Shown piece after piece: positions 6,651-33,306 of a stretch of DNA of 64,000 nucleotides (within the stretch, counting starts at the first letter, position 1; each line of letters opens with the position of its first letter). This DNA comes from Candidatus Latescibacterota bacterium. Its GTDB lineage: Bacteria; Latescibacterota; UBA2968; UBA8231. The notes beneath the pieces are model-generated. The model did no database searches. It saw only the letters and a program-made list of their open reading frames with translations, and had not been told where the DNA came from. Location of the stretch: NCBI GenBank assembly GCA_965223905.1, contig CBDCXV010000009.1, positions 512,001 through 576,000 of the forward strand, given 5' to 3'. Both the position numbers and the translations under genes were made by a program.

Positions 6651-7650
6651 GCATCCCTGTCCTGACTTTCTTCAACATCAAAAGAGGCGTTTGGAAGACG
6701 GCGCTGATCTATCACGTTGCTTCCATGCTGTCCAAGCTGGATCGTCCGGTGCTCGCCGCCGATCTCGACCCCCAGGCCAATCTGACGGCCGCTTTTCTGC
6801 AGGAAGGAGAACTGGAGAAACTGTGGGAACCATCCCCTGATGACACAATTGGGAAAACCATCTTCCAGTGCATCGAGCCGCTGAACGATGCAGGCGATAT
6901 CCGGGAGCCTTGCCTTCATCGGATCGACGATTACCTGCACCTCCTTCCTGGCGATCTCGCGCTCTCCGGTTTTGAGGACCTGCTTTCCGCAGAATGGCCC
7001 AACTGCCTAGGGAGCCAGAACCTCTACCGTCCCTTCCGGGTCATCACCTCGTTGTGGCAGGTGTTGCAGCAGGGGGCCCGCCAATGCGACGCCGATCTAA
7101 TCTTCGTCGACGTCGGCCCCAGTTTGGGGGCCATCAACCGGTCTGCTTTGATCGCCGCGGATTTTGTCGTCGTACCGCTGGGAGCAGACCTTTTTTCGCA
7201 GCAGGGTCTGCGCAACCTCGGCCCGGCGCTCAGGCGCTGGCGGGCCGATTGGGCAAGGCGGCGCGATAGCTGGGGCGAGCCGGCCTTCGACCTGCCGGCT
7301 GGAAACATGCACCCCATAGGTTACCTGGTTCAGCAGCACGGCGTGCGCCTGAGCCGCCCCATCCAGGCTAATGACCGCTGGGTGAAACGACGCCGGAGGA
7401 GTACGCGCGCAGCGTCCTGGGGACCGGACAAACGCCGCAATCGCTCACCTTGGAGACCGACGGCAACCGGATCGCTACGGTAAAGCACTTCCGCAGCCTG
7501 ATCCCGCTTGGACGGGAGGCCCGCAAACCTATCTTCGACCTGACCGTGGCCGACGGTGCCATCGGCAGCCACGCGGTGGCCGCCAGCGATGCTTTCCATG
7601 ACTTCAAGGAAATCACAGAGGAAATCCTGCGGCGCATAAGGGCCGACTGA
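6647..7650 (+). pseudogene. ParA/AAA_31-family ATPase with degenerate Walker A and a frameshift near 7390
   Basis: FFNIKRGVWKT instead of KGGVGKT; DLDPQANLT; DVGPSLG; C-terminus (PEEYARSVL...KPIFDLTVADGAIGSH) continues in another frame to TGA 7650. Confidence 0.7.
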
Positions 7651-7682
7651 GCCGGAGATCACAAGAAAAAAGGAACGACACC

Positions 7683-8810
7683 ATGAATGAGGAAAACCGA
7701 GACGACCGACTGCATCTTCCTAGCCTGTCAATTACCGGGTTCCGGGGGATTGATGCGCTCACCGTTGAGCGGTTGGGACGCGTGACGTTGCTGGCGGGGA
7801 GGAACAGCGTAGGCAAAACGACTGTGCTGGATGCGGTCCGGGCCTACGGGGCCCGGGGTCACCTTGATGTGTTGTCCAAGATGCTGGAAAGCAGTGAAGA
7901 GGTGGCTACACGTGTTAACGAGAGAGGTCAAGAGACGGTTGGCCCATATTGGGAGGCGATCTTCTACGGACGGGATGCTTCCGATGGGGCCACCTTATCG
8001 ATAGGCCCAAACAACGATCAGAATCGGCTTGAAATTGAAGCCGTCCGCCCAACAACGCTCCTTGCTGCTTGGCAAATCAGGTCACGTGGAATTCCGACAC
8101 GCAGTCTCAAATTTGTATTTCAAGGAGAGGAACTAGGAGAAACTGGACTATTCTGCCCTTACGCTTTGAGTACAAAAGTCTCCAGGAGCCGTCGCGTATA
8201 CCAATCATCAGGATGGACTTTTGGAAAAGTCCCCGCCGAAATTACGTGCGAGTCCATAGGACCTGGTCTGTTGAACAACAACGAGATCCTTGAACGCTGG
8301 AATGTAATCGCATTAACTGACGATGAGGACCGGGTGGTGAATGCTTTGCAGCCCATCCTCGGCGGCGAAGTGAGTCGCATTGCGATCATCGGAGATGAAA
8401 AATACGATTCACGAGCAGTGGCGAAGCTCCAGGGGCAGGAGTTTCCAGTACCCCTCAGAAGCTTTGGTGACGGCGCCCAGCGTTTGTTCGGCGTCGCTTT
8501 GGCCATTGTCAACAGCAGGGACGGATTTCTGCTCATCGACGAAGCGGAAAACGGCATTCACCACTCCGTGCAGCGCGATTTCTGGCGCATGGTGTTGCTG
8601 GGAGCTCAAGATAACAACGTGCAGGTCATTGCGACGACGCACAGCTACGACTGTGTGCGCGGCTTTGCACAAGCGATGACCGAGTGCGAAGGGATCGAAG
8701 GGGCGCTCGTCCGCATTGAACGCGAGGACGGACACCTGCGCGCGGTCGAGTATTCAGAGCGCAACCTCAAGGCCATTGCCAAGCAACCCACTCCTGTTGA
8801 GGTGAGGTAG
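7683..8810 (+). CDS. AAA_21/ABC-type ATPase
   Basis: Walker A GRNSVGKT, signature FGDG, Walker B LLIDEAENGIH, ATTHS. Confidence 0.85.
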   Translation: MNEENRDDRLHLPSLSITGFRGIDALTVERLGRVTLLAGRNSVGKTTVLDAVRAYGARGHLDVLSKMLESSEEVATRVNERGQETVGPYWEAIFYGRDASDGATLSIGPNNDQNRLEIEAVRPTTLLAAWQIRSRGIPTRSLKFVFQGEELGETGLFCPYALSTKVSRSRRVYQSSGWTFGKVPAEITCESIGPGLLNNNEILERWNVIALTDDEDRVVNALQPILGGEVSRIAIIGDEKYDSRAVAKLQGQEFPVPLRSFGDGAQRLFGVALAIVNSRDGFLLIDEAENGIHHSVQRDFWRMVLLGAQDNNVQVIATTHSYDCVRGFAQAMTECEGIEGALVRIEREDGHLRAVEYSERNLKAIAKQPTPVEVR

Positions 8811-8814
8811 ATGT

Positions 8815-9420
8815 ATGCCTGGTAAGGACCGCGTTCTTCTCGTCGAGGGGCCGGATGACGAGCACGTCGTCCGGCATCTTTCCATTCGCCACGAAGGGAT
8901 GCCCCAATTCTGCATTCTGCAGAAGGAAGGAATAGAAAATCTGCTCGATTTCATGGGCTTGGAGATTCTGGAACCCGGCCGCAGGGCCGTCGGTATCCTC
9001 GTGGACGCCAACGAGGATCTTACCGCTCGGTGGAGTGCTGTCGCCAACAGGCTTCGAGAGGAACATATCGAGGTGCCTGACGGTCCCGAGACAGGCGGCA
9101 GCATTGTGGACGGCTCTCCACGAATTGGCATCTGGTTGATGCCGGATAATTCTTCGCCAGGGGAGCTCGAGGATTTCGTCTCGGAAATGATCCCCGCCGA
9201 CGATCCAGTTTGGCCGTTAGCCCAGGACTACATCGACGGAATACCGAGGGAAGACCGGAAGTTTACCGAGAAAAAGATTCAGCGGGCAAAGCTCCATGCC
9301 TGGCTGTCAACCAGGGAGGATCCCAGACCGATGGGTGTCGCCATCCGCACGGGGGATTTGAGGGTGGATGGAAAACTCAGCACAACATTCGCGGACTGGC
9401 TGCGGAAGCTGTTCAATTGA
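8815..9420 (+). CDS. DUF3226 (TOPRIM-like) protein
   Basis: VLLVEGPDD, GILVDAN, IWLMPDN..GELEDF, KAKLHAWL-like motifs; follows AAA ATPase. Confidence 0.75.
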   Translation: MPGKDRVLLVEGPDDEHVVRHLSIRHEGMPQFCILQKEGIENLLDFMGLEILEPGRRAVGILVDANEDLTARWSAVANRLREEHIEVPDGPETGGSIVDGSPRIGIWLMPDNSSPGELEDFVSEMIPADDPVWPLAQDYIDGIPREDRKFTEKKIQRAKLHAWLSTREDPRPMGVAIRTGDLRVDGKLSTTFADWLRKLFN

Positions 9421-9445
9421 ATTGGTTTGGTACCAGTACCACATC

Positions 9446-10675
9446 ATGAGTTCTGCTGAACTGAATCTTGCCCGCCGACTCCGGCTCGGAGATGACTCGC
9501 CTCTGGAGGTCATGCGCGTCCTGCTGTCCGGTAGCCTCGTCACCAGCCCGGACCGAAACGAACTGGCCGACCAGCTCGCCGCCTTTGCCAACTCACGTGG
9601 GGGAACCCTCGTCATGGGAGTGGACGACGCCACCCACGAGGTTCTGGGCATCCCATTGGATTCCCTGGATGCGGTGGAGACCTGGGCCCGTGAAATCTGC
9701 AACGATTCCGTGAAACCCGCGCTCGACGTCGACATCCTGAAGCTCGAATTGCCGGACACTTCCGGAACACTCGTTCCGGTCGTCCGCATCGAGGTCCCCC
9801 GCGGCCTGTTCGTTCACGAGAGTCCGGGCGGATACTTCCACAGGACGGTCAGGTCGAAGCGAGAAATGGCACCCGATGTGCTGGCCCGGCTCTTCCACGA
9901 ACGCAGCCAAGGCGGTATGATCCGCTTCGACGAATCGCCGGTGCCCCGCACCGGGCCGGGCGATCTCGACTATTCCCTTACTCGCCGGTTCCTGCGGGAG
10001 GATTCTCAGGAGAGCGTCAACGAGGCGGCGGCACGAAAGCTCCGCCTCGTGGCCGATGACCAGGACGACGTCGCGCGACTCACGCTCGCCGGCGTTCTGC
10101 TGGGTACGCCCGAGCCGCAAAAGTGGCTACCCCACGCCTGCATACAGGCGGTCAGCTATGCGGGTGAGCGCACCGATGCCGACTATCAGACCGACGCCCG
10201 GGACATAGGGGAATCGCTCGACGAGCAGGTTGCGGAAGCCCTGTACTTTGTGCGGCGGAACATGCTGGTGCGGGCGACCAAGACGACGGCCCGGGTCGAG
10301 TGCCCGCAGTTCAGCGAACGGGCCGTTTTCGAGGCCCTGGTGAATGCCGTGGCTCACCGCGACTACTCCGTGGCAGGTTCCCGGATTCGTCTGCATCTCT
10401 TCGGAGACCGCCTCGAGCTCTACGTCCCCGGTGCCCTGGCGAATACCCTCTCGCCGGACAGTCTGCACCTGCGGCAGGCCAGCCGGAATGAACTCATCGC
10501 CTCCCTTTTGGGTCGCTGTCCTGCGCCCGGCGGTTTCGGCCGGACGCATTTGATGGACCGCCGCGGCGATGGCGTGCGGATTATCCGGGAAGAGTGCAGG
10601 CAGCTTTCGGGCCGCCTTCCTCAATACAACCTGGTTGACGACATCGAGTTGCGGTTGGTGATCCGGGCGGCATGA
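9446..10675 (+). CDS. Second AlbA_2 + HATPase_c_4 domain protein
   Basis: AAFANSRGGTLVMGVDD; EALVNAVAHRDY; RNELIASLL; MDRRGDG. Confidence 0.8.
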   Translation: MSSAELNLARRLRLGDDSPLEVMRVLLSGSLVTSPDRNELADQLAAFANSRGGTLVMGVDDATHEVLGIPLDSLDAVETWAREICNDSVKPALDVDILKLELPDTSGTLVPVVRIEVPRGLFVHESPGGYFHRTVRSKREMAPDVLARLFHERSQGGMIRFDESPVPRTGPGDLDYSLTRRFLREDSQESVNEAAARKLRLVADDQDDVARLTLAGVLLGTPEPQKWLPHACIQAVSYAGERTDADYQTDARDIGESLDEQVAEALYFVRRNMLVRATKTTARVECPQFSERAVFEALVNAVAHRDYSVAGSRIRLHLFGDRLELYVPGALANTLSPDSLHLRQASRNELIASLLGRCPAPGGFGRTHLMDRRGDGVRIIREECRQLSGRLPQYNLVDDIELRLVIRAA

Positions 10676-11160
10676 AGCTCTCTACCATCGGCTTCACCAG
10701 GAAACCTGCCCGCCGATTTTTCGAACTACTCCGTCAGTCGGGCGCAAAGCGTGTCGTCGACGTGCGGCTCAACAACGGGTCGCAGCTCGCCGGTTTCACC
10801 AAGAAGGATGACCTCCCCTACTTTCTCGATAAGCTTTGCGGCATGGAGTATGTCCACCTTCCCGCGCTGGCCCCGACGAAGGAGATCCTCGACGACTTCA
10901 AGAAGCGGAAGGGCGACTGGAAGACCTACGAGGACCGCTTCCTCGCCCTGATGCGGGAGCGGCGGATCGAGGAGACGGTCCCCAGGGAGATCGTCGCGGA
11001 CGGCTGCCTGCTGTGCAGCGAGGACAAGCCCCACCACTGCCACCGGCGTCTCGTTGCCGAGTACCTGAACGAGCATTGGGGGGGGCGTCGAGATCTCCCA
11101 CCTCGGATAGAGGCATGGCATGATACCCGCCTCGGAAACATTCATACCGATCATGGTTGA
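10672..11160 (+). CDS. DUF488 family protein (C-terminus probably frameshifted at a G8 run; natural stop about 11110)
   Basis: TIGF, VVDVR, LLCSE..PHHCHR motifs. Confidence 0.8.
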   Translation: MKLSTIGFTRKPARRFFELLRQSGAKRVVDVRLNNGSQLAGFTKKDDLPYFLDKLCGMEYVHLPALAPTKEILDDFKKRKGDWKTYEDRFLALMRERRIEETVPREIVADGCLLCSEDKPHHCHRRLVAEYLNEHWGGRRDLPPRIEAWHDTRLGNIHTDHG

Positions 11161-11443
11161 GCGCATCGTGGAGGGCTTCGCGCCTTACCGCGTAGTCCTT
11201 TTCGGCTCGCACTTGCGGGGCGCGACCCACAAGTGGAGCGACGTCGACTTGCTGGTGGTGTTGCCGAACGGTACCGATCAGCACCATGCCGCCGTCGAAA
11301 TCCACCGGGCCTTGGGCGATCTGCCGGTGGCCAAGGACATCGTCGTGACCACGCCGGAGGAAATCAGCCGTCGCGGTCACGTCATCGGTGGTGTGCTGTA
11401 CGCGGCACTGCGGGAGGGGGAAACCATCTATGAACGACCCTGA
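11120..11443 (+). CDS. Minimal nucleotidyltransferase (MNT antitoxin)
   Basis: VVLFGSHLRG...SDVDLLVV motif. Confidence 0.8.
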   Translation: MIPASETFIPIMVERIVEGFAPYRVVLFGSHLRGATHKWSDVDLLVVLPNGTDQHHAAVEIHRALGDLPVAKDIVVTTPEEISRRGHVIGGVLYAALREGETIYERP

Positions 11444-11834
11444 GCGCCTCCGTGAAGGGCGTCGCTGGCTTCGTTTCGCGAGGGAGGATCTCGATGTGGC
11501 GAAGGAGTTGCTTGGCGGGCGACGAATCCGACACGCCTGCTTTTGCGCCCAGCAAGCGGCCGAAAAGGCGCTAAAGGCGGCGCTCCTGCTTGAGGGACTC
11601 GAGATCCCCTACATACACGATTTGAATGCCGTGCGGAACCGGTTACCTGATTCGTGGTCCGTGCGGAGCGAACATCCCGATCTTGCTGAACTCACGGTAT
11701 GGGCAGCTGAATCTCGGTACCCCGGGGATTGGCAGGAGGCCACAGCGGTCGATGCCGAACGGGCGGTGTCGCAGGCCGGAGGGGTCTACGACTCAATAGC
11801 GGCCGAGTTCGAGCAGCGCACAAACGCTGAATAA
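11430..11834 (+). CDS. HEPN domain protein (MNT-HEPN pair)
   Basis: AQQAAEKALKA, HDL, SRYP motifs; overlaps MNT gene. Confidence 0.8.
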   Translation: MNDPERLREGRRWLRFAREDLDVAKELLGGRRIRHACFCAQQAAEKALKAALLLEGLEIPYIHDLNAVRNRLPDSWSVRSEHPDLAELTVWAAESRYPGDWQEATAVDAERAVSQAGGVYDSIAAEFEQRTNAE

Positions 11835-11875
11835 GTCATTAAAGGCCCCACCCCAACGGAAAAGAGAACCAGCAT

Positions 11876-14800
11876 ATGGCAATCACGAACCACGAGCGCG
11901 TCGGCACGGCGATGGAGTTGCTCCGTCAGGGACTGGCCCCGTTCGTCGAACGCGAGCTGAACGACAAGGTCAAGAGGAACGCCGTCGACATGGACGTTCT
12001 TCGCCGCTTCGAGATCGACAAGCCGTACCGCGAGTGGGACGCCGCTGCCCTCCTCCGGCTGATGGGGGATAACTGGAGGGACGTCTTCAGCGACACCTTC
12101 GGCTACACAGAGCGCAGCCTGGTTTCCGAGCTGCGTGAATGGCGCAACAAGTGGGCGCACCAGGAGCGCTTCTCCAGCGACGATGCCGACCGCGCCCTTG
12201 ACTCCGCGGAGCGTCTTCTCACCGCGGTTTCCGCTCCCCAGTCGGCCGAAGCCGCAAAGATGAAGTTGGAGCTGCGCCGGCGGGTGTTCGACGAGCAGGT
12301 GCGTGGGGAGCAGCGCCGGGGCATAGGCGGGCTTGTCGAAGCCGTGGGCGACGGCGGGCTCAAGCCCTGGCGCGAGGTGGTGACTCCTCACGCCGACGTG
12401 GCAAGCGGCCGCTACCAGCAGGCGGAGTTCGCCGCGGACCTGGGGCAGGTGCATCTGGGCGAGGGCACGGACGAGTACCGCGACCCCGGGGAGTTCTTCC
12501 GGCGGACCTTCCTAACCGAAAGCCTGAAGCGGTTGCTGGCCGGCGGTATCCAGCGCCTCGCCGGCCAAGGCGGCGACCCGGTGGTTCAACTGCAGACCAA
12601 CTTCGGGGGCGGCAAGACCCACTCGATGCTGGCGCTCTACCACCTGTTCTCCGGGATCCCAGCGCGGGAGCTCACCGGCATGGACGAGGTGCTGGCGGAG
12701 GCGGGGGTCGAAATTCCCCGGGAAGTGCGGCGCGTGGTGCTGGTCGGCACCCGCATTTCCCCGGGAAATCCGGTGACCAAAGCGGACGGCACGGTGGTTC
12801 GCACCCTGTGGGGGGAGCTCGCCTGGCAGCTCGGCGGCAAGGAGGCGTTCGAGCGGGTGCGCGCCGACGACGAGCGGGCGACCAGTCCCGGGGACGTGCT
12901 GCGGGAACTGCTGAACGAGTACGGGCCCTGCCTGGTGCTGATCGACGAGTGGGTCTCCTACGCGCGCCAGCTTCACGACGACCCCGATCTGCCGGCGGGC
13001 AGCTTCGAGACTCAGTTCACCTTCGCCCAGGCCCTGACCGAGTCGGTGAAGCTCACGGGCAACTGCCTGCTGGTGATTTCGCTGCCGGCTTCCAACACCT
13101 CGACTCCCGATTCTCCCCATACCGAGGCGGACGACGCCGAGGTCGGGGGTGTTCGCGGGCGCGGCGCCCTGGACCGGCTACGCAACGTGCTGGGCCGGAT
13201 CGACTCGCCGTGGAGGCCGGCCAGTGCCGAGGAGAGCTTCGAGATTGTGCGCCGGCGGTTGTTCGAGCCTCTCGCCGGACCGGACCCCTTCACGCAGCGC
13301 GACGTCACCGCCCGCGCCTTCTCCGAACTGTATCGCTTACAACAGGTCGAGTTCCCCGCGGAGTGCCGCACCGCCGACTACGAGCGCCGCATCCAGACGG
13401 CTTACCCGATTCATCCCGAGATCTTCGACCGACTCTACACGGACTGGTCCGCCCTCGCCAAGTTTCAGCGCACCCGAGGGGTGCTGCGCCTGATGGCCGC
13501 GGTGATCCACAGCCTGTGGGAGCGGGGGGACCGCAACCCGCTGCTGCTGCCCTCCACCCTTCCCATCGACGACGACCGCGTGCGCAACGAGCTGACCCGC
13601 TATCTCTCCGACAACTGGAACCCCGTCATCGACAAGGACGTCGACGGCCCGGGCTCGCTGCCGGTCGCCATCGACGGGAGGGCGCCCAACCTCGGCAAGC
13701 TCTCCGCCACGCGGCGGGTGGCGCGCACCGTCTACCTCGGCTCCGCCCCCACTACCGCAGCGGCGCACCGGGGCATCGACGACTCCCGGGTCAAGCTCGG
13801 CTGCGTCATGCCGGGAGAATCCCCGGCGGTGTTCGGCGACGCCCTGCGCAGGCTGGCCGCGGAGGCGACCTATCTCTACCAGGACGGCCCCAGGCAGTGG
13901 TACGCCACCCAGCCGACGGTCACCAAGCTGGCCGAGGACCGGGCCGAGCAACTGGCCGGCAACCCCGACGCGGTCGCCAGGGAGCTGGAGGAGCGGCTGA
14001 AGAAGGACCTGCGCAGCACCGGGGACTTCGACCGCATCCACACCCTGCCCCGCTCGGGGGCGGACGTGCCGGACGACCTCGACGCGCGGCTGGTGGTGCT
14101 CTCCGCGGAGCATCCCTGTTCGCGGGATCCGGACAATGCGGCGGAGGTCACCGCCCGGGAAATCCTCGAGTCGCGCGGCAGTACACCGAGACTGTTCCGC
14201 AACACCCTGGTCTTCCTGGCGGTGGACAAGGTGCGGTACCAGGACCTCGACGAAGCCCTGCGCCGGTACTTGGCCTGGGTGTCGATCCTCGACGAGAGGG
14301 AGGAACTCAACCTCGACCCCCACCAAGCCCGACAGGCGGAAACGCAGCTGAAGGCGGCTGACGACACGGTGACCGCGCGGCTGCCGGAGGCTTACCAGTG
14401 GCTGCTGGTTCCCGGGCAGGAAAGGCCGGATGCCGAGGTCTCCTGGGAAGCCATTCGTCTGACTGCGTCAGGGGCATTGGCGGAACGGGCAGGCAAGCGG
14501 CTGCGCAACGAGGAACTGCTGGTAGCCGGGCTCGGGGCGACCATCCTGCGCAAGCACCTCGACGAGGTGCCCTTATGGCGCGGGGGGGATCACGTGGCGG
14601 TGCGGCAGCTCGTCGAGGATTTCGGCCGGTATTTGTACCTGCCACGCCTGCGCAACACCGAGGTTCTCACGCGCGCCGTCCAGGACGGGGTCGCTTTGCT
14701 GACCTGGGAGTCGGATTCATTCGCCCTTGCCGAGAGCCAAGACGAGGCCGTTGGACGCTACCGCGGTCTGCAGGCGGGACAGGCGGTCGGAATTTCCCCC

Positions 14801-15187
14801 GAAAGCCCGGCCCTGCTGGTCAAGCCGAAGGTGGCCCGCCGGCAGCTCGACGCGGAGGTGCCGCCCACGCCGGCGCCGGCTCCCGAGGGTCAGGAGGAGG
14901 TACCACCTGGTACGGATGGGACTGAGCCGCCCCCGCCGCCGCCCGAGAAGAAGGCGCGACGGTTTCACGGGGCCGTGACGCTGGACGCCACCCGGGTAGG
15001 CCGAGACGCCGGCCAGATCGCCGACGAGGTGATATCCCATCTTTCCGGCCTGGTCGGATCGGAGGTTACGGTCACCCTGGAGATCGATGCCGAGATCCCG
15101 GAGGGGGCCCCGGAGAACGTCGTGCGCACGGTCACCGAGAACAGCCGCACCCTGAAGTTCGCCAGCCACGGGTTCGAGGAGTCGTGA
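11876..15187 (+). CDS. Swt1-like HEPN + DUF499 AAA+ ATPase
   Basis: N-terminal RNKWAH (RxxxxH); EFAADL, QTNFGGGKTH Walker A, LIDEW, YPIHP, FQRTRGVLR. Confidence 0.88.
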   Translation: MAITNHERVGTAMELLRQGLAPFVERELNDKVKRNAVDMDVLRRFEIDKPYREWDAAALLRLMGDNWRDVFSDTFGYTERSLVSELREWRNKWAHQERFSSDDADRALDSAERLLTAVSAPQSAEAAKMKLELRRRVFDEQVRGEQRRGIGGLVEAVGDGGLKPWREVVTPHADVASGRYQQAEFAADLGQVHLGEGTDEYRDPGEFFRRTFLTESLKRLLAGGIQRLAGQGGDPVVQLQTNFGGGKTHSMLALYHLFSGIPARELTGMDEVLAEAGVEIPREVRRVVLVGTRISPGNPVTKADGTVVRTLWGELAWQLGGKEAFERVRADDERATSPGDVLRELLNEYGPCLVLIDEWVSYARQLHDDPDLPAGSFETQFTFAQALTESVKLTGNCLLVISLPASNTSTPDSPHTEADDAEVGGVRGRGALDRLRNVLGRIDSPWRPASAEESFEIVRRRLFEPLAGPDPFTQRDVTARAFSELYRLQQVEFPAECRTADYERRIQTAYPIHPEIFDRLYTDWSALAKFQRTRGVLRLMAAVIHSLWERGDRNPLLLPSTLPIDDDRVRNELTRYLSDNWNPVIDKDVDGPGSLPVAIDGRAPNLGKLSATRRVARTVYLGSAPTTAAAHRGIDDSRVKLGCVMPGESPAVFGDALRRLAAEATYLYQDGPRQWYATQPTVTKLAEDRAEQLAGNPDAVARELEERLKKDLRSTGDFDRIHTLPRSGADVPDDLDARLVVLSAEHPCSRDPDNAAEVTAREILESRGSTPRLFRNTLVFLAVDKVRYQDLDEALRRYLAWVSILDEREELNLDPHQARQAETQLKAADDTVTARLPEAYQWLLVPGQERPDAEVSWEAIRLTASGALAERAGKRLRNEELLVAGLGATILRKHLDEVPLWRGGDHVAVRQLVEDFGRYLYLPRLRNTEVLTRAVQDGVALLTWESDSFALAESQDEAVGRYRGLQAGQAVGISPESPALLVKPKVARRQLDAEVPPTPAPAPEGQEEVPPGTDGTEPPPPPPEKKARRFHGAVTLDATRVGRDAGQIADEVISHLSGLVGSEVTVTLEIDAEIPEGAPENVVRTVTENSRTLKFASHGFEES

Positions 15188-15506
15188 CAAGGCCCGACAC
15201 CGCTGGTAGCACGAAGGGAGAGACAGCTCTACATATGAAATCGCGGTCTCCTCGCAGGTGGGAAAAAGGCCGAGGATGGGGAAGCCATGCAAATCCCGTG
15301 GCAGCGTTGGGCGCATTGATTGAGAGCCAAAAAGGTGCTTTATCTATACTCTTGTATCATGGATCCGTGGTCTCAGCCCAGCCAAGCGATACGCTCCCTG
15401 CTCCCACGCTTTTTGCTAACCTCGACGGTTGTCGTTCAAAGGGCCGGGTTAGAAGTTGCGTCGGTTGGGCCCATCAAGGAGGAAGGCTTTGGACTTGCTA
15501 GGGAAC

Positions 15507-17354
15507 ATGTACATCGAACGAGTGCAGGTAGACGAAGGCTTTCTCGACGGTCTGGACCTGCGGCTGGCCCGAGGGCTCACTGTGATTATCGGCGCCCGCG
15601 GAGCGGGGAAGACCTCACTTGTGGAACTCGTCCGGTTCTGTCTCGATGTAGGAAGCTTCACCGATGAGGCTGGTCAGCGAGGGTACCAGCAGGCGCTGTC
15701 CGTTCTCGAAGGTGGGCAAGTTACGGTGACCCTGAGCGATGGGCACGAGCGCACCACATTCGTAAGGTCAGCGTCTGACTCGTTGCCGCGGTCGACTTCA
15801 AGGCCGCCTGATGTGACGATCCTTGCGCAAGGAGAAATCGAGGCTGTCGGCGCCCAAAGGGGTGGGCGCCTGCATCTTGTTGACCGGCTTGTTCCGGAGC
15901 GACGAGACTTTCACCGAAAAGCCGAGCACCTGAGAACCCAGATTAAGTCCATCACAGTCGAGATCCGAGATCTGCTGATCGAAGTAGACGACATGGAAGG
16001 AGCCGTTGGTGAGGAACGGAACGTTCCAGAGGAGCTAGCGAAAGCTCTGGAGCTAGAGGCTTCAGCCCTCAAATCCGTAGAGGCGACGGAAGCGGATAGA
16101 AAGCAGCTTGCCTCCTTGCAGCAAGCATCCGCGCAAACGAAGGTGCAGCAGGGGGTGTTTGAACGCGCTTTGGAAGAACTGGAATCACTGGATGCTGACC
16201 TAGTGGGGATTTCTAAACGTCCGATTCTAGCGGAGAGTTGGCCTGATTCAGCAGGTGGGCAGGATATGCTTTCACCGCTGCGTGAAAAGGTCGTCAGTGC
16301 TCTTGACCATTTAGATAAGGCGAGGCTGGTAGTTGCTGCAAGTATCCAGGACATACAGTCGCATATAGAGGATGGCATTGAGAAGACAATCAGGACAGAC
16401 CAAGCATCTCGCGAGATTCGGAAACGATTGGACCAGTTAGAGGAAGGTATAGGTGCGATCACCCGGAGGGTGGAGGAACTTCGCGAGAAGTCGGGTCAGC
16501 TCTCGGCGCTTAGCCAGCGATTGGTCGAGAAGCGTGCGCATGCGGTCTCCCAGTCAGGACACCGAAACGAGCTATACCGTGCTCTAGATCGTCTGCGTCA
16601 GGAACGCTTCGACAGCCGATTAAAGGTCGCAAAGTCCCTCACAGACGAGCTTGGACCTGACATTCGGGTCAGGGCTACCCGATCAGAGCAGACAAGACCC
16701 TATGCTGAAGCCATTATCGGTGGGCTTCGAGGAAGCGGCCTGCACTACAACGCGCTTAGTCCGCAACTCGCTGCTACCATGTCTCCACTGGAACTAGCCC
16801 AAGCTGTCGAAACAAGGGACCCCGAACCAATTGCAGAAGCAGCAGAAATACCGAGAGGTCGGGCGATGGCTATCATTCAGGCTCTAAAAGAAAGTGATTT
16901 GGCAAGCATCGTAGCGGCGCCGATTGACGACGGTATCGCACTTGAACTTCTAGACGGGTCCATATACAAGAATAGTGAGAATGTTTCAATCGGACAGCGC
17001 TGCACAACAGTTTTGCCGGTGCTCTTGGGCCAGCATGGAGGAATCCTCATGGTTGATCAACCAGAGGATCATTTGGACAATTCCTTCATCACTACTACGG
17101 TAGTAACTGCACTTAAAAAACGAGATCCAGGAGACCAGTTGATCTTTGCTTCACACAATGCCAATATTCCAGTATTGGGCAATGCAGATTCGATTGTAGT
17201 GCTCGACTCTGACGGAAAACGCGGTTTCGTAAAGCATACCGGCCCCCTTGAGGACAAGGAGAGCGTGCGAGCAATTACGGATGTCATGGAGGGAGGTGCC
17301 AAGGCGTTCGCGCGGCGGGCAGAATTTTACGGTGGTGATTTCGGTAGAGACTAA
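15507..17354 (+). CDS. SMC/ABC-type ATPase with central coiled coil (TrlF/Ppl-like ATPase module)
   Basis: GARGAGKT, SIGQ signature, MVDQPEDHLDN, SHNANIPVLG. Confidence 0.85.
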   Translation: MYIERVQVDEGFLDGLDLRLARGLTVIIGARGAGKTSLVELVRFCLDVGSFTDEAGQRGYQQALSVLEGGQVTVTLSDGHERTTFVRSASDSLPRSTSRPPDVTILAQGEIEAVGAQRGGRLHLVDRLVPERRDFHRKAEHLRTQIKSITVEIRDLLIEVDDMEGAVGEERNVPEELAKALELEASALKSVEATEADRKQLASLQQASAQTKVQQGVFERALEELESLDADLVGISKRPILAESWPDSAGGQDMLSPLREKVVSALDHLDKARLVVAASIQDIQSHIEDGIEKTIRTDQASREIRKRLDQLEEGIGAITRRVEELREKSGQLSALSQRLVEKRAHAVSQSGHRNELYRALDRLRQERFDSRLKVAKSLTDELGPDIRVRATRSEQTRPYAEAIIGGLRGSGLHYNALSPQLAATMSPLELAQAVETRDPEPIAEAAEIPRGRAMAIIQALKESDLASIVAAPIDDGIALELLDGSIYKNSENVSIGQRCTTVLPVLLGQHGGILMVDQPEDHLDNSFITTTVVTALKKRDPGDQLIFASHNANIPVLGNADSIVVLDSDGKRGFVKHTGPLEDKESVRAITDVMEGGAKAFARRAEFYGGDFGRD

Positions 17355-17359
17355 GGCCG

Positions 17360-18298
17360 GTGGATAGGCGCGAAGCACTTGAGCTATTGTCCTCAGAAAG
17401 CGCTTTCGACAGATTGCGCGCTGCACGCATTTTGCGCCATCTTGCTGTCTCATCCTCAGATAGAGCCCTCATTGAAGCCGCTCACCGGACCGAATCGGAT
17501 GCGTGGGTACGTTCTGCTCTCTCGAGGATCACAAGCCACGATCCGAAAGCACCCTCGGGGAAAAGTCCAGAAGAGCAAGTCGTAGAGGATGGAACACTGC
17601 TTGCCCATGACATTCGAGCACAGACCACCCAAGAGTTAACGGCGATGGTTGCCCATGAACTCGACCCACTCCTCGGGACGCTTCGTATGTGTTGTATGAA
17701 GGAGATATCCAGTTTCGAGGAGAGTGAGACTAAGCGATCCATTGCTGGCCTCGAGTCCTTTCTTAAGGCCCTGCGAGGGCTCTACAAAGCATCCGGAGTA
17801 CCCTCGGTCAGCGACTTTAGCCTTAACGACGTTGTGTTTGATTCAATCGAAACGGTTCTAGAAGAGCGACGGCAAAATGCAGCGGAAGAGATAAAGGTGG
17901 AAGCGGCGCGAAAGGATTATGTGGGGACACTAGGAGATCCCGATCTAGTCCGTCTTGCCCTCGTCAACATTCTTCGTAACGCCTTAGAAGCGAGCGACTC
18001 AACATCGGGAGGACAGGGACTTCCCGTGGTAGTCAACTGGGGTTTCACTGAAAGAGACGCTTGGGTATCGGTCTTGGACGAAGGGGTTGGCCTTCCACCG
18101 GGGGCATCTGGCATGGTAAAACCCGGTGTAACGAACAAGGACAAAGGTGCTCATTCTGGCATGGGTCTGCCCGTGTGCATCAGGGCACTAAAAGGGCTGA
18201 ATGGTGCGTTGGCTCTTCGACCACGCGAGGGTGGTGGAGTGGTCGCGGAGATGCGTTGGAAGGGAGATGAAGGGAAAAATGCGGGTGCTTCTAATTGA
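17360..18298 (+). CDS. Cytoplasmic histidine kinase with N-terminal HEAT-like repeat
   Basis: H-box VAHEL, N-box NILRNALEA, G1 DEGVG, G2 GMGL; no TM segments; N-terminal RLRAARIL...ESDAWVRSAL. Confidence 0.75.
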   Translation: MDRREALELLSSESAFDRLRAARILRHLAVSSSDRALIEAAHRTESDAWVRSALSRITSHDPKAPSGKSPEEQVVEDGTLLAHDIRAQTTQELTAMVAHELDPLLGTLRMCCMKEISSFEESETKRSIAGLESFLKALRGLYKASGVPSVSDFSLNDVVFDSIETVLEERRQNAAEEIKVEAARKDYVGTLGDPDLVRLALVNILRNALEASDSTSGGQGLPVVVNWGFTERDAWVSVLDEGVGLPPGASGMVKPGVTNKDKGAHSGMGLPVCIRALKGLNGALALRPREGGGVVAEMRWKGDEGKNAGASN

Positions 18299-19697
18299 GG
18301 ACGAGGAGGCCACAATCCGACAGATCCGCGCCCGCTTGCAAACCGAATGCCAAGCTAATGTCAAACTCGCACGAAGCAGGGACACTGCTATCGAGATTTT
18401 GAAAGGGAACGAGGATTTCGACTTGATCGTCTGTGACTTGAGAATCCCGACACGAGACGGATCGTTGGACGTAGACCAGGAACACGGCCTCCGGGTGCAT
18501 GATGTAGCTCGTACAGAGCATCCCGGCACCTTCACGATCTTTTTCAGCGGATTTGTAGAGCTTGAAAATGTAGGTGCAAGACTGTCTGCCGGCCCGTCTC
18601 TGGACGTCTTCGCCACAGGAGAAGAATGGCCGCTTGTAGACGCCCTCCTTAAATCGAAACAACCGGAGTTTCTTCAGTGGGCTACCAAATTGAGTATGAG
18701 ACTCAGGGAGGTAAATCAAATCAATATCCTTCAACCCAATATTTGCCTCACTAACGAATTCGCGTGGAGGACCTTACGCATCTATGCGAAACGATTGAAT
18801 GGAACAGAGATTGTTTCTGAGAGCCTGGGCGGTCTGTCAGGCGCGAAGGTACTTCGAGTCGAGATTTTGGACGGGTCACAAGCCTCTGTAGGATTGGTAG
18901 TTGCGAAGGTGGATCTACTCGTACGAATTGAGGACGAGCTTGTTCGCTATCGTAGGCATGTGGCACCGGTTCTGCGGGTCGGAACATTTGCTCCGCTAGC
19001 GGGCGAAGTCCTCCACGGATGTGGTCGGTTCGGAGCAGCCTTCTACAGCCTCGCTGCGAATGGATACAACGACCTTTTCTACCTGTCCATCACTGATGAC
19101 GCTGCTTCTCAGAAGGCGGTGTCTCTACTCCGCAAATCTCATCGTCAGTGGCGAGGCAATACTGGTAGCTCGAACGTATCCGTCGGCACCGTAAGGTCTT
19201 CTTGCATATCCGATGAACAGCTTGCTCCGTGGAGGGACGACCTTAGTCCAGACCGCGTTGAGGAGGCAGAGGCAATCACGATCTCCATGAAGCAATCTAT
19301 CCAACACGGAGATCTGCACGGCCTCAACGTGCTTGTCGATAGCGAAGGAGGACCTCTAATTATCGACTACGGCAACTTTGCCCGGCACCCAGTGGCACTC
19401 GATCCAGTGACACTTGAAATGAGCTTCGTATTTCACGCCGAACATCCTGAGCTTCATGGATGGCCGTCTATTGAGCAGGCGTCACGCTGGTTTGATCTAG
19501 CCGAATACGTTCGCGGTTCGCATCTCAAGGAGGTAGTCGGTGCTTGCCGCCAGTGGGCAGAATCCGATACCTCCCGACCGGAGTTGGCGGCAATCGTATA
19601 CGCTCATGCAGTACGGCAGCTGAAATATGAAGATACCAATAAAAGTCTTGCCCTTGCCATTGCTAAAGCCGCCATGGCAGAGCTGATTGGCGAGTAG
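18279..19697 (+). CDS. Receiver domain fused to APH/protein-kinase-like domain
   Basis: LLIEDE...IVCDLRIP...FSG receiver; GLSGAKV, VAK, E helix, HGDLHGLN, IIDYG kinase motifs. Confidence 0.75.
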   Translation: MRVLLIEDEEATIRQIRARLQTECQANVKLARSRDTAIEILKGNEDFDLIVCDLRIPTRDGSLDVDQEHGLRVHDVARTEHPGTFTIFFSGFVELENVGARLSAGPSLDVFATGEEWPLVDALLKSKQPEFLQWATKLSMRLREVNQINILQPNICLTNEFAWRTLRIYAKRLNGTEIVSESLGGLSGAKVLRVEILDGSQASVGLVVAKVDLLVRIEDELVRYRRHVAPVLRVGTFAPLAGEVLHGCGRFGAAFYSLAANGYNDLFYLSITDDAASQKAVSLLRKSHRQWRGNTGSSNVSVGTVRSSCISDEQLAPWRDDLSPDRVEEAEAITISMKQSIQHGDLHGLNVLVDSEGGPLIIDYGNFARHPVALDPVTLEMSFVFHAEHPELHGWPSIEQASRWFDLAEYVRGSHLKEVVGACRQWAESDTSRPELAAIVYAHAVRQLKYEDTNKSLALAIAKAAMAELIGE

Positions 19698-19721
19698 TTA
19701 GCTTCCTCACTCCGAACAGGT

Positions 19722-20006
19722 TTATTCGCGTTCAAACCCTCTTGGTCGAATAAGACAAGCTTTTCCGAGGAAACTACTCCAAATAACTATAGGACATAAT
19801 GTATGCGTATCCTTGAAATCGTGTTGCAAGCCGAAGGTATGGCTCAGTTCGTGGGCCACCGTCGTAAAGCTCGCACTTCCCCCTATAGAAATAAAGGCAC
19901 GATTTTTAACTCTCGGCCATGGCGCTGAGCGCACCTCAAGATTAGGCAGCACCCTGAGGATGGTTTGCATGTCCCTCGACAGAGCATCGTAGTACTGGTG
20001 GACCAT
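19722..20006 (-). pseudogene. Zinc metallopeptidase fragment
   Basis: AHELSHTFGLQH (HExxHxxGxxH) in a short ORF. Confidence 0.35.
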
Positions 20007-20343
20007 CCTGCATCCAGAAAAAAACGTGTATCCTGCAGGGTCAAAATGGAGATCTCAGGGGAAGATCGGAACAAGAAGGACAGGACAGCAAATACCAAAA
20101 TGAATCACCCTTTTCTCTGCCTGTCCGGCGGTCAAAGAATGGGTTCCATCCCTCCTTTCTGTTGCCGGCAAGTGGGAGCATTGACAGGGGTCCGGCTGGC
20201 GGTAATTTATCCTACGCGACCGAATCTTCATCCGAGTAAGGATTGATCACACCCTCGTTGTATTAGAGAACTGTAACTGGGGCACTCAACCACTTATCTT
20301 TTTCAGGTTTTGTTAATCAATAGTTGAACGCTTAGGTGACAAG

Positions 20344-21099
20344 ATGGCTAGGAAGCCACCGCCAGGACGATGCGTACATTGTAGAGCTGAGGTCAAGCAC
20401 CTGACTTGGGATCATGTGTTCCCCAAGGGGTGGTATCCGGGGAACACGCCTCCGAACATGGAGAAGTGGAAAATTCCAGCGTGTAGTCCGTGCAACTCGA
20501 GGTATGGGTGCATTGAAGACGACCTCGGAATCGTCATTCCCCTTTGTCTCGGACCCGACGCACCGAACGCCACAGGATTGTACCAGAAGGCCCTACGTGC
20601 TATCGATCCATCCCATGGGCGAAATCACAGAGACAGAGTGAATAGGAGGAAGAAACGACAGAAGCTCTTTCGGAGTTTGCTCAAGGGTCACGAGATTCCC
20701 AACGCTGTGTACCCAGGATTTGAGGAGAGATGGAACAGGGCTAAGTCGGATCAGGTTGGCCTTCCTGTTCCGGTAGATCACCTGAAGCAATTGGTCGTGA
20801 AAATAGTAAAAGGCATTACGTACATAGAGGATCGGATCTACCTAAATGAGCACACACAGATTGAGCACCATGTAGTAAAGCCAAGCATAGCCGCCCCACT
20901 CGAGAAAGCCGTGAGGGTGCACGGCGAAATACACTCTCGAGAACCTGGAATAGAAGTCGTCCGCGCCGTTACACCGGACGATGGCGTCTCTGCCCTATAC
21001 AAGATCACAATCTGGGGGAGGCTAGTAATGTACGCGACGGTGAAAAAAGGCCTTCAACCGGACGCTCCAGTGGACTCATCACAAGCTTCCTGCCTCTAA
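20344..21099 (+). CDS. HNH endonuclease-like protein
   Basis: CVHC, TWDHVFP, PACSPCN motifs. Confidence 0.7.
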   Translation: MARKPPPGRCVHCRAEVKHLTWDHVFPKGWYPGNTPPNMEKWKIPACSPCNSRYGCIEDDLGIVIPLCLGPDAPNATGLYQKALRAIDPSHGRNHRDRVNRRKKRQKLFRSLLKGHEIPNAVYPGFEERWNRAKSDQVGLPVPVDHLKQLVVKIVKGITYIEDRIYLNEHTQIEHHVVKPSIAAPLEKAVRVHGEIHSREPGIEVVRAVTPDDGVSALYKITIWGRLVMYATVKKGLQPDAPVDSSQASCL

Positions 21100-21580: not shown

Positions 21581-22354
<774 letters not shown>

Positions 22355-22404
22355 TGAGGCCACACGGGTCGTTGAATCAATCCCTGCGCAAGGAGAGCCT
22401 GGTT

Positions 22405-25476: not shown

Positions 25477-26940
25477 GGCTATATACGGGTTTTTCAACGT
25501 GGTATTTATAGCGTTTCCCCAATGAGATTTTTAGGGTTTCATACTGTACGGAATCGGGCCGGAATCTGCGCAGGGATATCGAGGTCTCCGACGCACAGGT
25601 AAATCAGGTCGGCAAAGGCATCCAGAGTTTTAAATCCACTGGCTCGATTCTTGACCATGCGGATAATGCGATTGAGCCCTTCGGCGGCGGCGTTGGTCAG
25701 GTGCGTGTCGACGAAGGCGGTGATGCCGGCCGCCTGCTTGCGCACCGTGTTGACGAACTTGCGCAGGGGCTGCAGGCGGCTGCGCAGGGCCGCCGTCGTC
25801 CACTTCTTGAGGAAGCGTTCGGCGGCCCAGCGCGCCTTGTAGCGCCAGAAGTGCTCGAACTCGTCCTTCAGGCGCCAGGCGCGGTAGATGCGGCGGTTGG
25901 CCTTCTCCAGGGTTTGGAGCGTGCGCCGATCCTTTCGCGAGCGCTGGGCGGAGTGATGCAGCAGCACCCAGCGCAGGCCCTTGAGCAGCTTGCGGTCCTC
26001 GCCACAGGCTTGCCGCCACTGCTCCTTGCGCACCTCGTCGACGGCTTCGTTGAGGGCCTTGACGACGTGGAATCGGTCCAGGACCAACTCGGCGTTGGGA
26101 CCATGCTGCCGGATGGCGCCGATGAAGGTCTCGCTCAGGTCGCAGCAGGCCCAGCGGATGCGGTCCTTCTGGAAGGCGCTGAGATGGTCCCGGAAAAACG
26201 CGTCGATGGTCTTCCGTGCCTTGCCCTTGCCGACCCAGACGACACGGGAGCGTTCCAGGTCGTAGACCAGGGTAGCGTATTTATGGCCCTTGGCGTAGGA
26301 GATCTCGTCGATGCCGAGGGTCTTCAGCCGGCGGATGCGGTGCCCCGTACGCCGGCGCTCGATGAGCCGGTGCAGCTGGTCGGACAGGGTCGACGGGGCC
26401 AGACCCAGCAGGCGCGCGGCGGCGGCCTGCGTCATCCACTGGCAGTACCTCAGCAGCAGGTATTCGAAGCGGTAGCTGACCTGGGCCGAGGGCGCCGCCC
26501 AGGGCACCTCCTCGACGCGACGGCCGTGGGTCGGGCAGCGGATCTCCCGAGGGGCGTGGTGCAACCAGAGGGTACGGCCGCAAACGCGGACGTCGCGCCA
26601 GCGGCGGAACTCCATGACCTGTACGATCTTGCCGCGGCGCCCACACTCGGGACACCGGCACCCGTTCCTTTGGGGCTTCACCGCGACCACGACGGCCGCT
26701 TCTTCCCCGTGTCCTTCGAACCACACGCCCACCGCGCGAAATCCCTTGAATTGGAACAGCTTGGAGACGAACTTCATAGCGGTCATAGGTCGCCTTCCCT
26801 TCCCTTTCTTGGGGAGTGCTTGATGGGGATACACCAAGCATAGGGAACGACCTATGGCCTTGTCATGTACTCAGATGGACAGCAAGGGCTCAGGTACTTT
26901 CCGTACTTACGTTTCGGCGTTGAAAAACCCGGATAGACCC
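25477..26940 (-). mobile_element. ISL3-family insertion sequence with 8-bp TSD TTCTAAAT
   Basis: Imperfect terminal IRs GGCTATATACGGGTTTTTCAACG / CGTTGAAAAACCCGGATAGACCC; TSD at 25469-25476 and 26941-26948. Confidence 0.9.
25539..26786 (-). CDS. ISL3 transposase
   Basis: CPECG zinc finger, LGIDE, DRFHVV, TNAAAEGLN. Confidence 0.92.
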   Translation of the reverse strand: MTAMKFVSKLFQFKGFRAVGVWFEGHGEEAAVVVAVKPQRNGCRCPECGRRGKIVQVMEFRRWRDVRVCGRTLWLHHAPREIRCPTHGRRVEEVPWAAPSAQVSYRFEYLLLRYCQWMTQAAAARLLGLAPSTLSDQLHRLIERRRTGHRIRRLKTLGIDEISYAKGHKYATLVYDLERSRVVWVGKGKARKTIDAFFRDHLSAFQKDRIRWACCDLSETFIGAIRQHGPNAELVLDRFHVVKALNEAVDEVRKEQWRQACGEDRKLLKGLRWVLLHHSAQRSRKDRRTLQTLEKANRRIYRAWRLKDEFEHFWRYKARWAAERFLKKWTTAALRSRLQPLRKFVNTVRKQAAGITAFVDTHLTNAAAEGLNRIIRMVKNRASGFKTLDAFADLIYLCVGDLDIPAQIPARFRTV

Positions 26941-31082: not shown

Positions 31083-31412
31083 CGCATCTGCACGACATTG
31101 CGCGGCCAATTCAATCATCGGTTCAGTTCCTTGGATTCGGCGGCATCCGGTGTTCGAGCATGGAGAAACATGGCAGGATTCTCCCAGACAAATGGCAATT
31201 TGTCCCCATGGTACCACGGCTTACGGAAATGTACAAACCGGAATCCTTAACAGAGCACTAGTTGGAGGAAGCGGGGTTCGGGAAGAACACACCAGTATAC
31301 AATGGAAGGGGAAGGAAACGAAACGAGGGCGGGGAAGGCTCTAACGAAAAGGTGTTGCAATCGGTGCCGTTGGCGTCCAAATTAGAAAGGTACGATTGAA
31401 AGGAAGGTGGAT

Positions 31413-32750: not shown

Positions 32751-32751
32751 A

Positions 32752-33306
32752 ATGATGCCCTTATCTCAATTTGTCGAGCCAATAGGGTCTGCTGGTGGCT
32801 TCAACGCTTTTCGGATGGACAGTACAGTTAGTGGGTCTGACATGCGTCGGGCAGCCGGACTGGGAACATGCGAGTGTTGTGACTATGTTACCGTCAGCCA
32901 AGACAAAGAAAGTATTGTTTTTATTGAAGAGACTGACTTAGATAGCACGATTGTTGAATTCAAACAGAAATTCAATTACTTAAATGACCAAGACCAAGTA
33001 GATATGCTCTACGACGAAGTTCTTAAAGAACATCGGCTTAAACTTTACGGGTCAATGTTGATTTTGTGTCGGCTATCCAGTTCACGAGAAGACGTAAAAG
33101 CCCTTTTTCCAGTTGATAAGTTCCAATTTTGGCTCGTAACGACCAGGGTTCAGGCCGATTCTGCTCTACTTATGGACTACCTAAATGAGAGATTGAAAGG
33201 GTTTTTAAAAAGTTCTTTACTCAAAGAAACGATGAGTGTTGTTCAAATTATACCCTCTAAAAGACTATTTGAGAAGCTGTCTACTCATGCACAACAAATC
33301 ACTTAA
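32752..33306 (+). CDS. Hypothetical protein, partner of AAA ATPase
   Basis: 184-aa ORF 1 bp after ATPase; same low GC; CDY...VFIEE possible nuclease motif. Confidence 0.6.
   Translation: MMPLSQFVEPIGSAGGFNAFRMDSTVSGSDMRRAAGLGTCECCDYVTVSQDKESIVFIEETDLDSTIVEFKQKFNYLNDQDQVDMLYDEVLKEHRLKLYGSMLILCRLSSSREDVKALFPVDKFQFWLVTTRVQADSALLMDYLNERLKGFLKSSLLKETMSVVQIIPSKRLFEKLSTHAQQIT

Follow-up and report, generated by a model that had tools for sequence, protein, structure and literature searches.

What is accomplished by an ABC ATPase whose gene is followed immediately by genes for a soluble histidine kinase and for a receiver domain fused to a second kinase? This question is raised by three adjoining genes, here called g1, g2, and g3, that occupy positions 15507-19697 of a 64-kb stretch of DNA from a Candidatus Latescibacterota bacterium (contig CBDCXV010000009.1, positions 512,001 to 576,000; the whole stretch is hereafter called the window). 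An earlier examination of the bare sequence (the original prediction) proposed that the genes encode a phosphorelay defense system. The three genes constitute one conserved, self-contained, horizontally mobile unit. With a probability slightly above one half (about 0.55), we favor the view that this triad is an immune phosphorelay resembling Detocs, with a Ppl-like ATPase as its sensor and a kinase as its effector. It would be a self-contained mobile conflict system that is most likely directed against phages or mobile elements. The members of the triad are as follows.

15507..17354, + strand: g1, 615 amino acids (aa), coiled-coil ABC (SMC/Rad50-like) ATPase of the TrlF/Ppl clade, proposed sensor
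17360..18298, + strand: g2, 312 aa, soluble class-I histidine kinase, proposed transducer
18279..19697, + strand: g3, 472 aa, receiver plus TCAD9/APH-like kinase, proposed phospho-activated effector

Conservation of the three-gene unit

The list of open reading frames (ORFs) for the 64-kb window places the three same-strand genes at the coordinates initially given for them. Because the N-termini of homologs align there, the starts are assigned to ATG 15507 for g1, to GTG 17360 for g2 (5 bp past the g1 stop), and to ATG 18279 for g3, which overlaps g2 by 20 bp. An alternative TTG at 15456 would add 17 residues to g1 that are common to none of its homologs. Thus, the tight coupling described in the original prediction, with its 5-bp gap and 20-bp overlap, is borne out both by the ORFs and by the homolog starts. 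The same is true of its remark that the triad is lower in G+C content (GC) than its surroundings. Across 16-21 kb GC is 0.52-0.54, whereas the 12-15 kb segment has 0.69 and the 22-27 kb segment 0.62-0.65, and the low-GC patch extends past the triad to ~21.5 kb. A promoter/terminator scan of 15000-20500, which was uninformative, found no sigma-70-like promoter site.

Searches with g3 reveal a family that is both sizable and broad. A word-indexed search returned 188 matches, nearly all of them ~470 aa in length, and representative clusters (50% identity) number 700 at E <= 1e-3, 560 at 1e-10, and 380 at 1e-30. When one genome per species was scanned with g3, 80 loci from at least 10 phyla were obtained, and most of these loci are chromosomal. 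The genes g1, g2, and g3 stand in this order on one strand in 66 of the 80 loci, 63 of which were recognized by ORF clustering and three (L026, L039, and L040) by tblastn. The other 14 comprise three loci that begin inside or just before g3 at the start of a contig, one fragment, five decayed remnants, and five orphans. Junctions within the triads are mostly overlaps of 4-20 bp. No fourth gene is conserved among the 80 loci, with the next largest neighbor cluster being present in just 7 of them.

The same unit is recovered when g1 serves as the query. A metagenome scan with an alignment of g1 yielded 80 loci that split cleanly into 42 with a triad-type ATPase and 38 with another. Among the triad-type loci, g2 is next in every case with enough downstream DNA (38/38), and g3 then follows in 37 of 37. 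The similarity scores of the three genes also correlate with one another over 53 loci (Spearman 0.80, 0.65, and 0.52), although these loci are related and the values are therefore descriptive only. The co-occurrence anticipated at the outset is evident in both surveys, and it fails in the five genome loci where a g3-like gene stands alone.

Anatomy of the three proteins and of a sister cassette

Kyte-Doolittle values do not exceed 1.3 in any 19-residue window of g1, g2, or g3, and because there is no hydrophobic segment by this measure, all three proteins look soluble. Their catalytic residues are invariant or nearly so across 22-31 homologs, as judged from alignments of 26 (g1), 31 (g2), and 22 (g3) sequences.

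The best family match of g1 is NCBIfam TrlF_fam_ATP (NF045780, E = 1.2e-68), with 232.8 bits versus a cut-off of 350. This match spans profile positions 296-944 of 944 and leaves the first ~295 positions unmatched. The C-terminal ATPase part of Ppl is also matched (E = 2.9e-19 with PADLOC, E = 7e-22 with NCBIfam), and the scores again lie under the curated cut-offs (77.2 bits versus 1000 for Ppl, 115.5 versus 475 for Spaf_1101). As originally described, g1 is a coiled-coil ABC ATPase with the DQPED.LDN/HNAN signature. Its motifs include Walker A at G29-K35, D517QPEDHLDN525 (Walker B/D-loop), and H550NAN553 (H-loop), and the Walker A, Q-loop, signature (SxGQRC), Walker B (DQPED), D-loop, and H-loop (HNAN) motifs are invariant in all 26 sequences. 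The protein carries a long helical insert, and its profile matches in the PDB are to SMC/Rad50 heads only, together with coiled-coil proteins that align to residues ~140-380. Scans with Pfam, PADLOC, and NCBIfam detect neither a nuclease nor another effector domain in g1. The open frame upstream of 15507 is just 17 codons long, and in each of 20 triad-type loci the upstream frame is short as well. A search for larger fusions that include g1 (1078 aa or more) found none, although this is weak evidence. By these findings, g1 is a TrlF/Ppl-clade ATPase that lacks the N-terminal region of those proteins.

Pfam recognizes HATPase_c alone in g2 (E = 1.2e-9). HisKA, HEAT, and TPR give no Pfam match to the protein at E <= 1, and no PADLOC model matches it. 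The AlphaFold model, which has a predicted local distance difference test (pLDDT) score of 90.1, consists of four N-terminal helices (residues 3-59), a DHp domain (78-145, including H99), and a CA domain (151-301). Foldseek retrieves CpxA (4cb0) at 1.6e-11 and ZraS (9jfj) with a template modeling (TM) score of 0.74, and also HK853 and CusS. According to this model, the DHp helices are predicted to be present and the N-terminus is predicted to be HEAT-like. The original description of g2 as a soluble kinase with a HEAT-like segment thus holds with regard to solubility, whereas the HEAT-like character comes from the model. The kinase motifs are H99-E100, N207, D240xGxG244, and G267xG269. Residues H99, N207, G242, G244, G267, and G269 are invariant in the 31 sequences, with E100 and D240 retained in 90% or more of them.

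A physical association between the ATPase and the histidine kinase receives weak support from complex prediction. The pairing of g1 with g2 scored 0.59 versus 0.01 for the best control, with a partner pLDDT of at least 71 and with at least 92% of contacts common to the runs. Of 80 solved complexes, 58 attain the mark for such predictions, as do 2 of 110 mismatched pairs, but just 7 of those 80, together with both mismatches, gave scores of 0.60 or below.

Three Pfam families match g3 above their cut-offs: TCAD9 (PF19974, 57.6 bits versus 40), Response_reg (34.4 versus 30.2), and APH (PF01636, 25.7 versus 23.2). In the AlphaFold2 model (pLDDT 90.4), residues 1-146 form the receiver, with D53, and residues 149-470 form the kinase. 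The Pfam receiver match is limited to residues 3-62, and model residues 1-146 align to solved receivers (VIA Z 15.9). For the kinase portion, VIA identifies maltokinase 4u94 (Z 14.4, 279 aligned) and the peptide kinase LxmK (Z 14.1), and Foldseek adds choline, glucosamine, amicoumacin, and aminoglycoside kinases. The motifs K210 and E220, H343GDLHGLN350, and D363YG correspond to the APH-type Lys-Glu pair, HxDxxxxN loop, and DxG. Residues E7, D8, D53, and K125 of the receiver and K210, E220, H343, D345, N350, and D363 of the kinase are invariant in 22 sequences. Pfam, the model, and this alignment therefore agree with the initial view that g3 joins a receiver to an APH-like kinase with intact HGDLHxxN and DYG motifs. 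TCAD9 is precomputed on nearly all g3 homologs, and elsewhere in the protein atlas TCAD9 kinases are joined to STAS, or to a receiver plus Trans_reg_C. To our knowledge, no TCAD9 kinase has an experimentally known substrate.

Like classical two-component systems, the triad has the H-box His, the N, G1, and G2 boxes, and the acidic pocket, Asp, and Lys of a receiver. Unlike those systems, it has neither a membrane or PAS/GAF input nor a DNA-binding output, and its output is instead a kinase.

The remaining 38 metagenome loci (L154-L166, L169-L181, and L183-L194) reveal a sister cassette. Their more distant ABC ATPase is ~630 aa in length and likewise lacks an N-terminal extension. Of the 38 loci, 29 had at least 1.2 kb of downstream DNA, and in 23 the ATPase gene is succeeded by one for a 376-aa HEAT-histidine kinase with homology to g2 (hhalign probability 99.6%, E = 8.8e-25). 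The third gene, present in 21 loci, encodes a protein of ~305 aa with an N-terminal receiver and a C-terminal part that resembles none of the common Pfam families. Weak hints (RpaA over profile positions 5-260, XylR at E = 0.18) point to a possible winged-helix DNA-binding domain at the end of this protein. The sister cassette is as conserved as the triad and appears to be unnamed. Because the ATPase and HEAT-kinase are kept while the receiver output changes, the receiver protein would be the output and the ATPase-kinase pair the input. By this comparison of sequences, the ATPase and HEAT-kinase are the constant module, and the receiver output is exchangeable.

A candidate immune phosphorelay and its alternatives

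The sequences show directly the anatomy of the genes, their intact catalytic residues, synteny, mobility, and genomic context, and the exchange of the receiver output. A defense role, a sensed cue, the binding of g1 to g2, a direction of flow, and a toxic kinase that acts on some target are what we infer. The sensor would be g1, as a relative of the Ppl NTPase module that lacks the nuclease, perhaps in a complex with the HEAT-like N-terminus of g2. An infection cue, such as foreign DNA, DNA with free ends, or nucleotide depletion, would shift the ATPase state of g1, and this change would switch g2 to autophosphorylation on H99. The phosphoryl group might then move from H99 to D53 of g3 and release or dimerize the fused TCAD9/APH-like kinase. 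This kinase could phosphorylate a host or phage protein, or perhaps a small molecule, such that growth or phage replication stops. The proposed flow from the ATPase to the kinase to the receiver-kinase fits the anatomy of the proteins and the changed output of the sister cassette.

A DNA or nucleotide cue is proposed for g1 because of what its relative Ppl senses. Ppl is described in the available passages as a single-gene defense system that consists of a PHP exonuclease and an NTPase (PMC12904381, PMC11482910), and a passage of a 2026 review states that the NTPase part responds to nucleotide depletion and to 3'-OH DNA ends (PMC12904381). The g1 protein matches the Ppl ATPase part, and the two have the DQPEDxLDN/HNAN motifs in common. 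However, g1 lacks PHP or any other N-terminal domain and scores far under the Ppl cut-off, and its proposed effector is provided in trans by g2 and g3. The other named relative, TrlF, derives from a Photorhabdus temperature-restriction locus, according to the accessible text of its report (10.1101/2020.06.02.129163). Although TrlF provides the best family match of g1, TrlF proteins are ~900-980 aa in length, are not followed by g2 or g3, and include the first ~295 profile positions that are missing from g1. The 300 N-terminal residues of one full-length TrlF have no PDB sequence match, and two full-length proteins give no Pfam match in this region at E <= 0.01, which leaves a PHP domain unconfirmed for TrlF. 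The TrlF family is common in Latescibacterota, with members above cut-off in 38 of 151 genomes. The original statement that ATPases of this clade act as sensors in conflict systems is therefore supported for Ppl by the review passage, whereas the available TrlF passages do not demonstrate sensing.

Immune phosphorelays as such are already known from Detocs and Ambrosia, as reported in the portions of both papers that are available. In Detocs, the validated system closest to the triad in its logic, a receiver-effector fusion is phosphorylated by a soluble kinase that bears repeats, and defense requires the His as well as the Asp (10.1101/2023.01.24.525353). As far as the accessible part of that report describes it, Detocs is a three-gene cytoplasmic His-Asp relay that serves as an immune pathway, and the triad would resemble it in this respect. 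It also resembles the triad in its soluble kinase with an N-terminal helical region, in its receiver fused to an enzyme rather than to a DNA-binding domain, and in an effector domain that is exchanged between relatives, as it is between the triad and the sister cassette. The differences evident from the same text are equally clear. Detocs has the stand-alone receiver "buffer" DtcB and no ATPase, whereas the triad has an ABC ATPase and no buffer, and no DtcB-like stand-alone receiver ORF lies between or beside g1, g2, and g3 or is conserved in the 80 loci. The DtcA sensor is TPR, in place of which g2 has a short four-helix HEAT-like segment. The DtcC effector is mostly a PNP ATP nucleosidase, and the proposed effector of g3 is a TCAD9/APH-like kinase, with neither a PNP nor a nuclease or transmembrane domain. 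No sequence-level link between the triad and Detocs was found in Pfam, PADLOC, and NCBIfam scans, with the presence of Detocs models in PADLOC 2.0.0 being uncertain. Separately, the system in Fig. 6F of DefensePredictor was considered as a possible match to the triad and was rejected, as its legend lists TPR, HATPase, REC, and purine phosphorylase and reads as Detocs-like.

Ambrosia, as portrayed in the available text, is a five-gene system that combines restriction-modification and two-component parts (10.1101/2025.09.30.679545). It shares with the triad a histidine-kinase/receiver pair, which is required there for phage defense (10.1101/2025.09.30.679545). In contrast to g3, its receiver carries a winged helix and would, as proposed there, regulate the transcription of restriction-modification-like genes, and the accessible description includes neither an ABC ATPase nor a kinase effector.

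A further connection is provided by the TCAD9 domain, which was named for its association with vWA-MoxR-VMAP conflict systems, as indicated in the available part of the source (PMC10910872). The main text of Kaur et al. 2020 states that histidine kinases were not encountered among vWA-associated effectors and does not name TCAD domains (PMC7159879). The g3 kinase belongs to Pfam TCAD9, but no vWA, MoxR, or VMAP gene is found among the neighbors in the window or among conserved triad neighbors. Two orphan receiver-TCAD9 genes from Dehalococcoidia (L010 and L012) lie divergent from genes for an OmpR-type regulator, vWA-FHA, and DnaJ-FHA, and they are closer to the context in which TCAD9 was named because of these vWA-FHA neighbors.

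As anticipated, no PADLOC 2.0 model names the triad, and the NCBIfam and Pfam models do not name it either. We found no description of the triad in the literature searched, which did not extend to the ABC ATPase classification (Krishnan et al. 2020) or to the supplements of Kaur et al. 2020 and of the Detocs report, so that an earlier bioinformatic mention is possible. The original prediction knew of no described system that links such an ATPase to a His-Asp relay. Relays of this type do function in defense, but no named system joins one to the ATPase in the models searched.

Confirmation of the proposed function would establish a second, independent phosphorelay-immunity family beside Detocs, would mean that a Ppl-type sensor ATPase can be separated from its nuclease and connected to a signaling cascade, and would provide a function for TCAD9 kinases. 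The three proteins are small and soluble, a clear point mutant can be named for every one of them, and the sister cassette offers a natural effector-swap control. A bolder proposal, which we consider tentative and somewhat doubtful, is that the triad represents a widespread unnamed pathway in which an SMC/Rad50-like ATPase sensor gates a histidine kinase, and in which an output kinase switched on by His-Asp phosphotransfer kills or arrests the cell. In this case, the triad would be one member of an "ATPase-HEAT-kinase-receiver-X" family with exchangeable outputs. It would also be the first defense system in which a two-component relay is coupled to an ABC ATPase sensor, and g3 would be the first phospho-activated APH-like kinase effector.

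The settings in which triads are found bear on these possibilities. A census of the flanks of 63 triad loci covered 234 ORFs, with output by family and not by protein. At E <= 1e-10, PADLOC detects type I, II, IIG, III, and IV restriction-modification proteins, along with DpdF, DISARM, MADS, PsyrT, SoFic, PD-T4-6, and MkoA. Mobile-element genes in the flanks include six integrases, five resolvases, and several transposases. Full triads occur on two IMG/VR contigs, and g3 matches 47 plasmid records, of which Piscirickettsia accounts for 36. Among the plasmid copies examined, three triads are intact, and these adjoin VapBC (twice), AbiEii, and VbhA/Fic and have generic RefSeq names. No blastn match to the Enterobacter-type triad was found in complete genomes of E. 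coli. Many of the plasmid copies in Piscirickettsia salmonis are annotated as two hypothetical proteins.

Several observations weigh against an immune role. The flanks are mixed, and many of the genes found there are housekeeping or metabolic genes or plainly belong to mobile elements. Where the original prediction asked whether triads sit mainly in housekeeping contexts, they are found in defense, toxin-antitoxin, or mobile-element settings, with many housekeeping genes among the neighbors. No GenBank phage record has a match to g3. One P. salmonis plasmid locus (L094) has decayed, with its ATPase lost and its kinase truncated, and lies amid insertion sequence (IS) elements and toxin-antitoxin genes. 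Two of the five g3-like genes that exist without g1 and g2 adjoin vWA-FHA genes. The closest solved folds of the g3 kinase are mostly small-molecule kinases, and therefore a toxic protein-kinase role is not implied. Finally, the winged helix of the sister cassette, if true, fits regulation as well as it fits immunity.

Perhaps the triad instead serves plasmids, integrative elements, and islands as an addiction or stress module, in which a HipA-like growth-arrest kinase is held by the relay and either stabilizes the element or answers DNA damage. The 47 plasmid records, the VapBC, Fic, AbiEii, relaxase, integrase, and resolvase genes that adjoin the cassette, and the relationship of the ATPase clade to DNA-end sensors are all in keeping with this idea. 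However, the triad includes neither a small partner of antitoxin type nor a DNA-binding domain for autoregulation, an addiction module made of three enzymes whose active sites are intact would be elaborate, and most loci are chromosomal. We regard this explanation as unlikely, while recognizing that in practice it overlaps with abortive-infection defense.

A second alternative is that the relay activates an APH/choline-kinase-like enzyme that modifies a metabolite, an antibiotic, or an envelope precursor, and that it serves resistance or metabolism. The APH match above the Pfam cut-off and the best structural matches, namely the maltokinase and the choline, glucosamine, amicoumacin, and aminoglycoside kinases, would be expected of such an enzyme. 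Yet genes for transport, biosynthesis, or catabolism are not conserved next to the triad, and the kinase has as its obligatory partner an SMC/Rad50-like ATPase from a defense-linked clade. Moreover, the fold also includes the peptide kinase LxmK, and the available source derives the TCAD9 name from conflict systems (PMC10910872). A regulated small-molecule kinase seems improbable to us, although the structural neighbors mean that it has to be taken seriously.

The flow could also be reversed or branched, with g3 or g2 regulating g1 as the actual DNA actor that clamps or compacts foreign DNA, or with a relay that just tunes the ATPase, but we consider this a poor prospect even though, in Wadjet and Lamassu, DNA is the direct substrate of SMC-like ATPases according to the available review text (PMC12904381), and mean column identity is 47% for g1, 34% for g2, and 50% for g3, given that g1 has no nuclease or other effector domain and lacks the TrlF/Ppl N-terminal region, and that the sister cassette keeps the ATPase and kinase while changing the receiver output.

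Neighboring genes in the window

The window is a defense island, and PADLOC and Pfam confirm the DUF499 ATPase that the original prediction placed upstream of the triad. The other features are as follows.

1438-2652 and 2595-5384: split Dsr1-like protein (SIR2 part and C-terminal part, respectively), both matching the same PADLOC Dsr1 models
5439 and 9368: Schlafen/AlbA_2-HATPase_c_4 proteins, two copies
6626: ParA-like ATPase
7683-9420: AAA_15/21 ATPase and DUF3226 pair, candidate system PDC-M38A/B (E = 5.5e-70 and 4.5e-36)
10672: DUF488 protein
11388: HEPN protein
11876: HEPN_Swt1-DUF499 protein, PADLOC HmaC (E = 0)
19722-20006, - strand: 94-aa ORF with a Reprolysin_5 zinc-metalloprotease motif (E = 1.5e-6), probably a gene fragment, in the low-GC patch of the triad
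20344-21099, + strand: 251-aa ORF with no Pfam or PADLOC match, in the low-GC patch of the triad
21917-22357: class I Glu/Gln-tRNA synthetase catalytic-domain fragment, 146 aa (E = 5.4e-41), at the edge of the low-GC patch
25539-26837, - strand: ISL3 transposase
31407-33306: second low-GC patch (0.44-0.45) with an AAA_15/21 ATPase (HEC-02A / PD-T4-4_A-like) and a 184-aa partner without a match

The 251-aa ORF was considered as a member of the system and was rejected, as it is not conserved beside other triads and matches no family. The 94-aa ORF is likewise not conserved adjoining other triads. The tRNA synthetase fragment looks like a truncated gene that marks an insertion boundary, and no tRNA genes are present in the window. 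No ortholog of g3 was found in 40 relatives, two of which are of the same genus, and the sole matches there are receiver-level (E ~1e-5). Recent acquisition fits this absence from all 40 relatives together with the drop in GC from 0.69 to 0.53.

Two further observations concern the region upstream of the triad. The split Dsr1-like pair may reflect a frameshift or a natural two-gene form. In addition, positions 5439-15187 of the window resemble the layout termed "BREX-related type 1" in the available portion of its source, in which HEPN is fused to DUF499 (PMC12839542).

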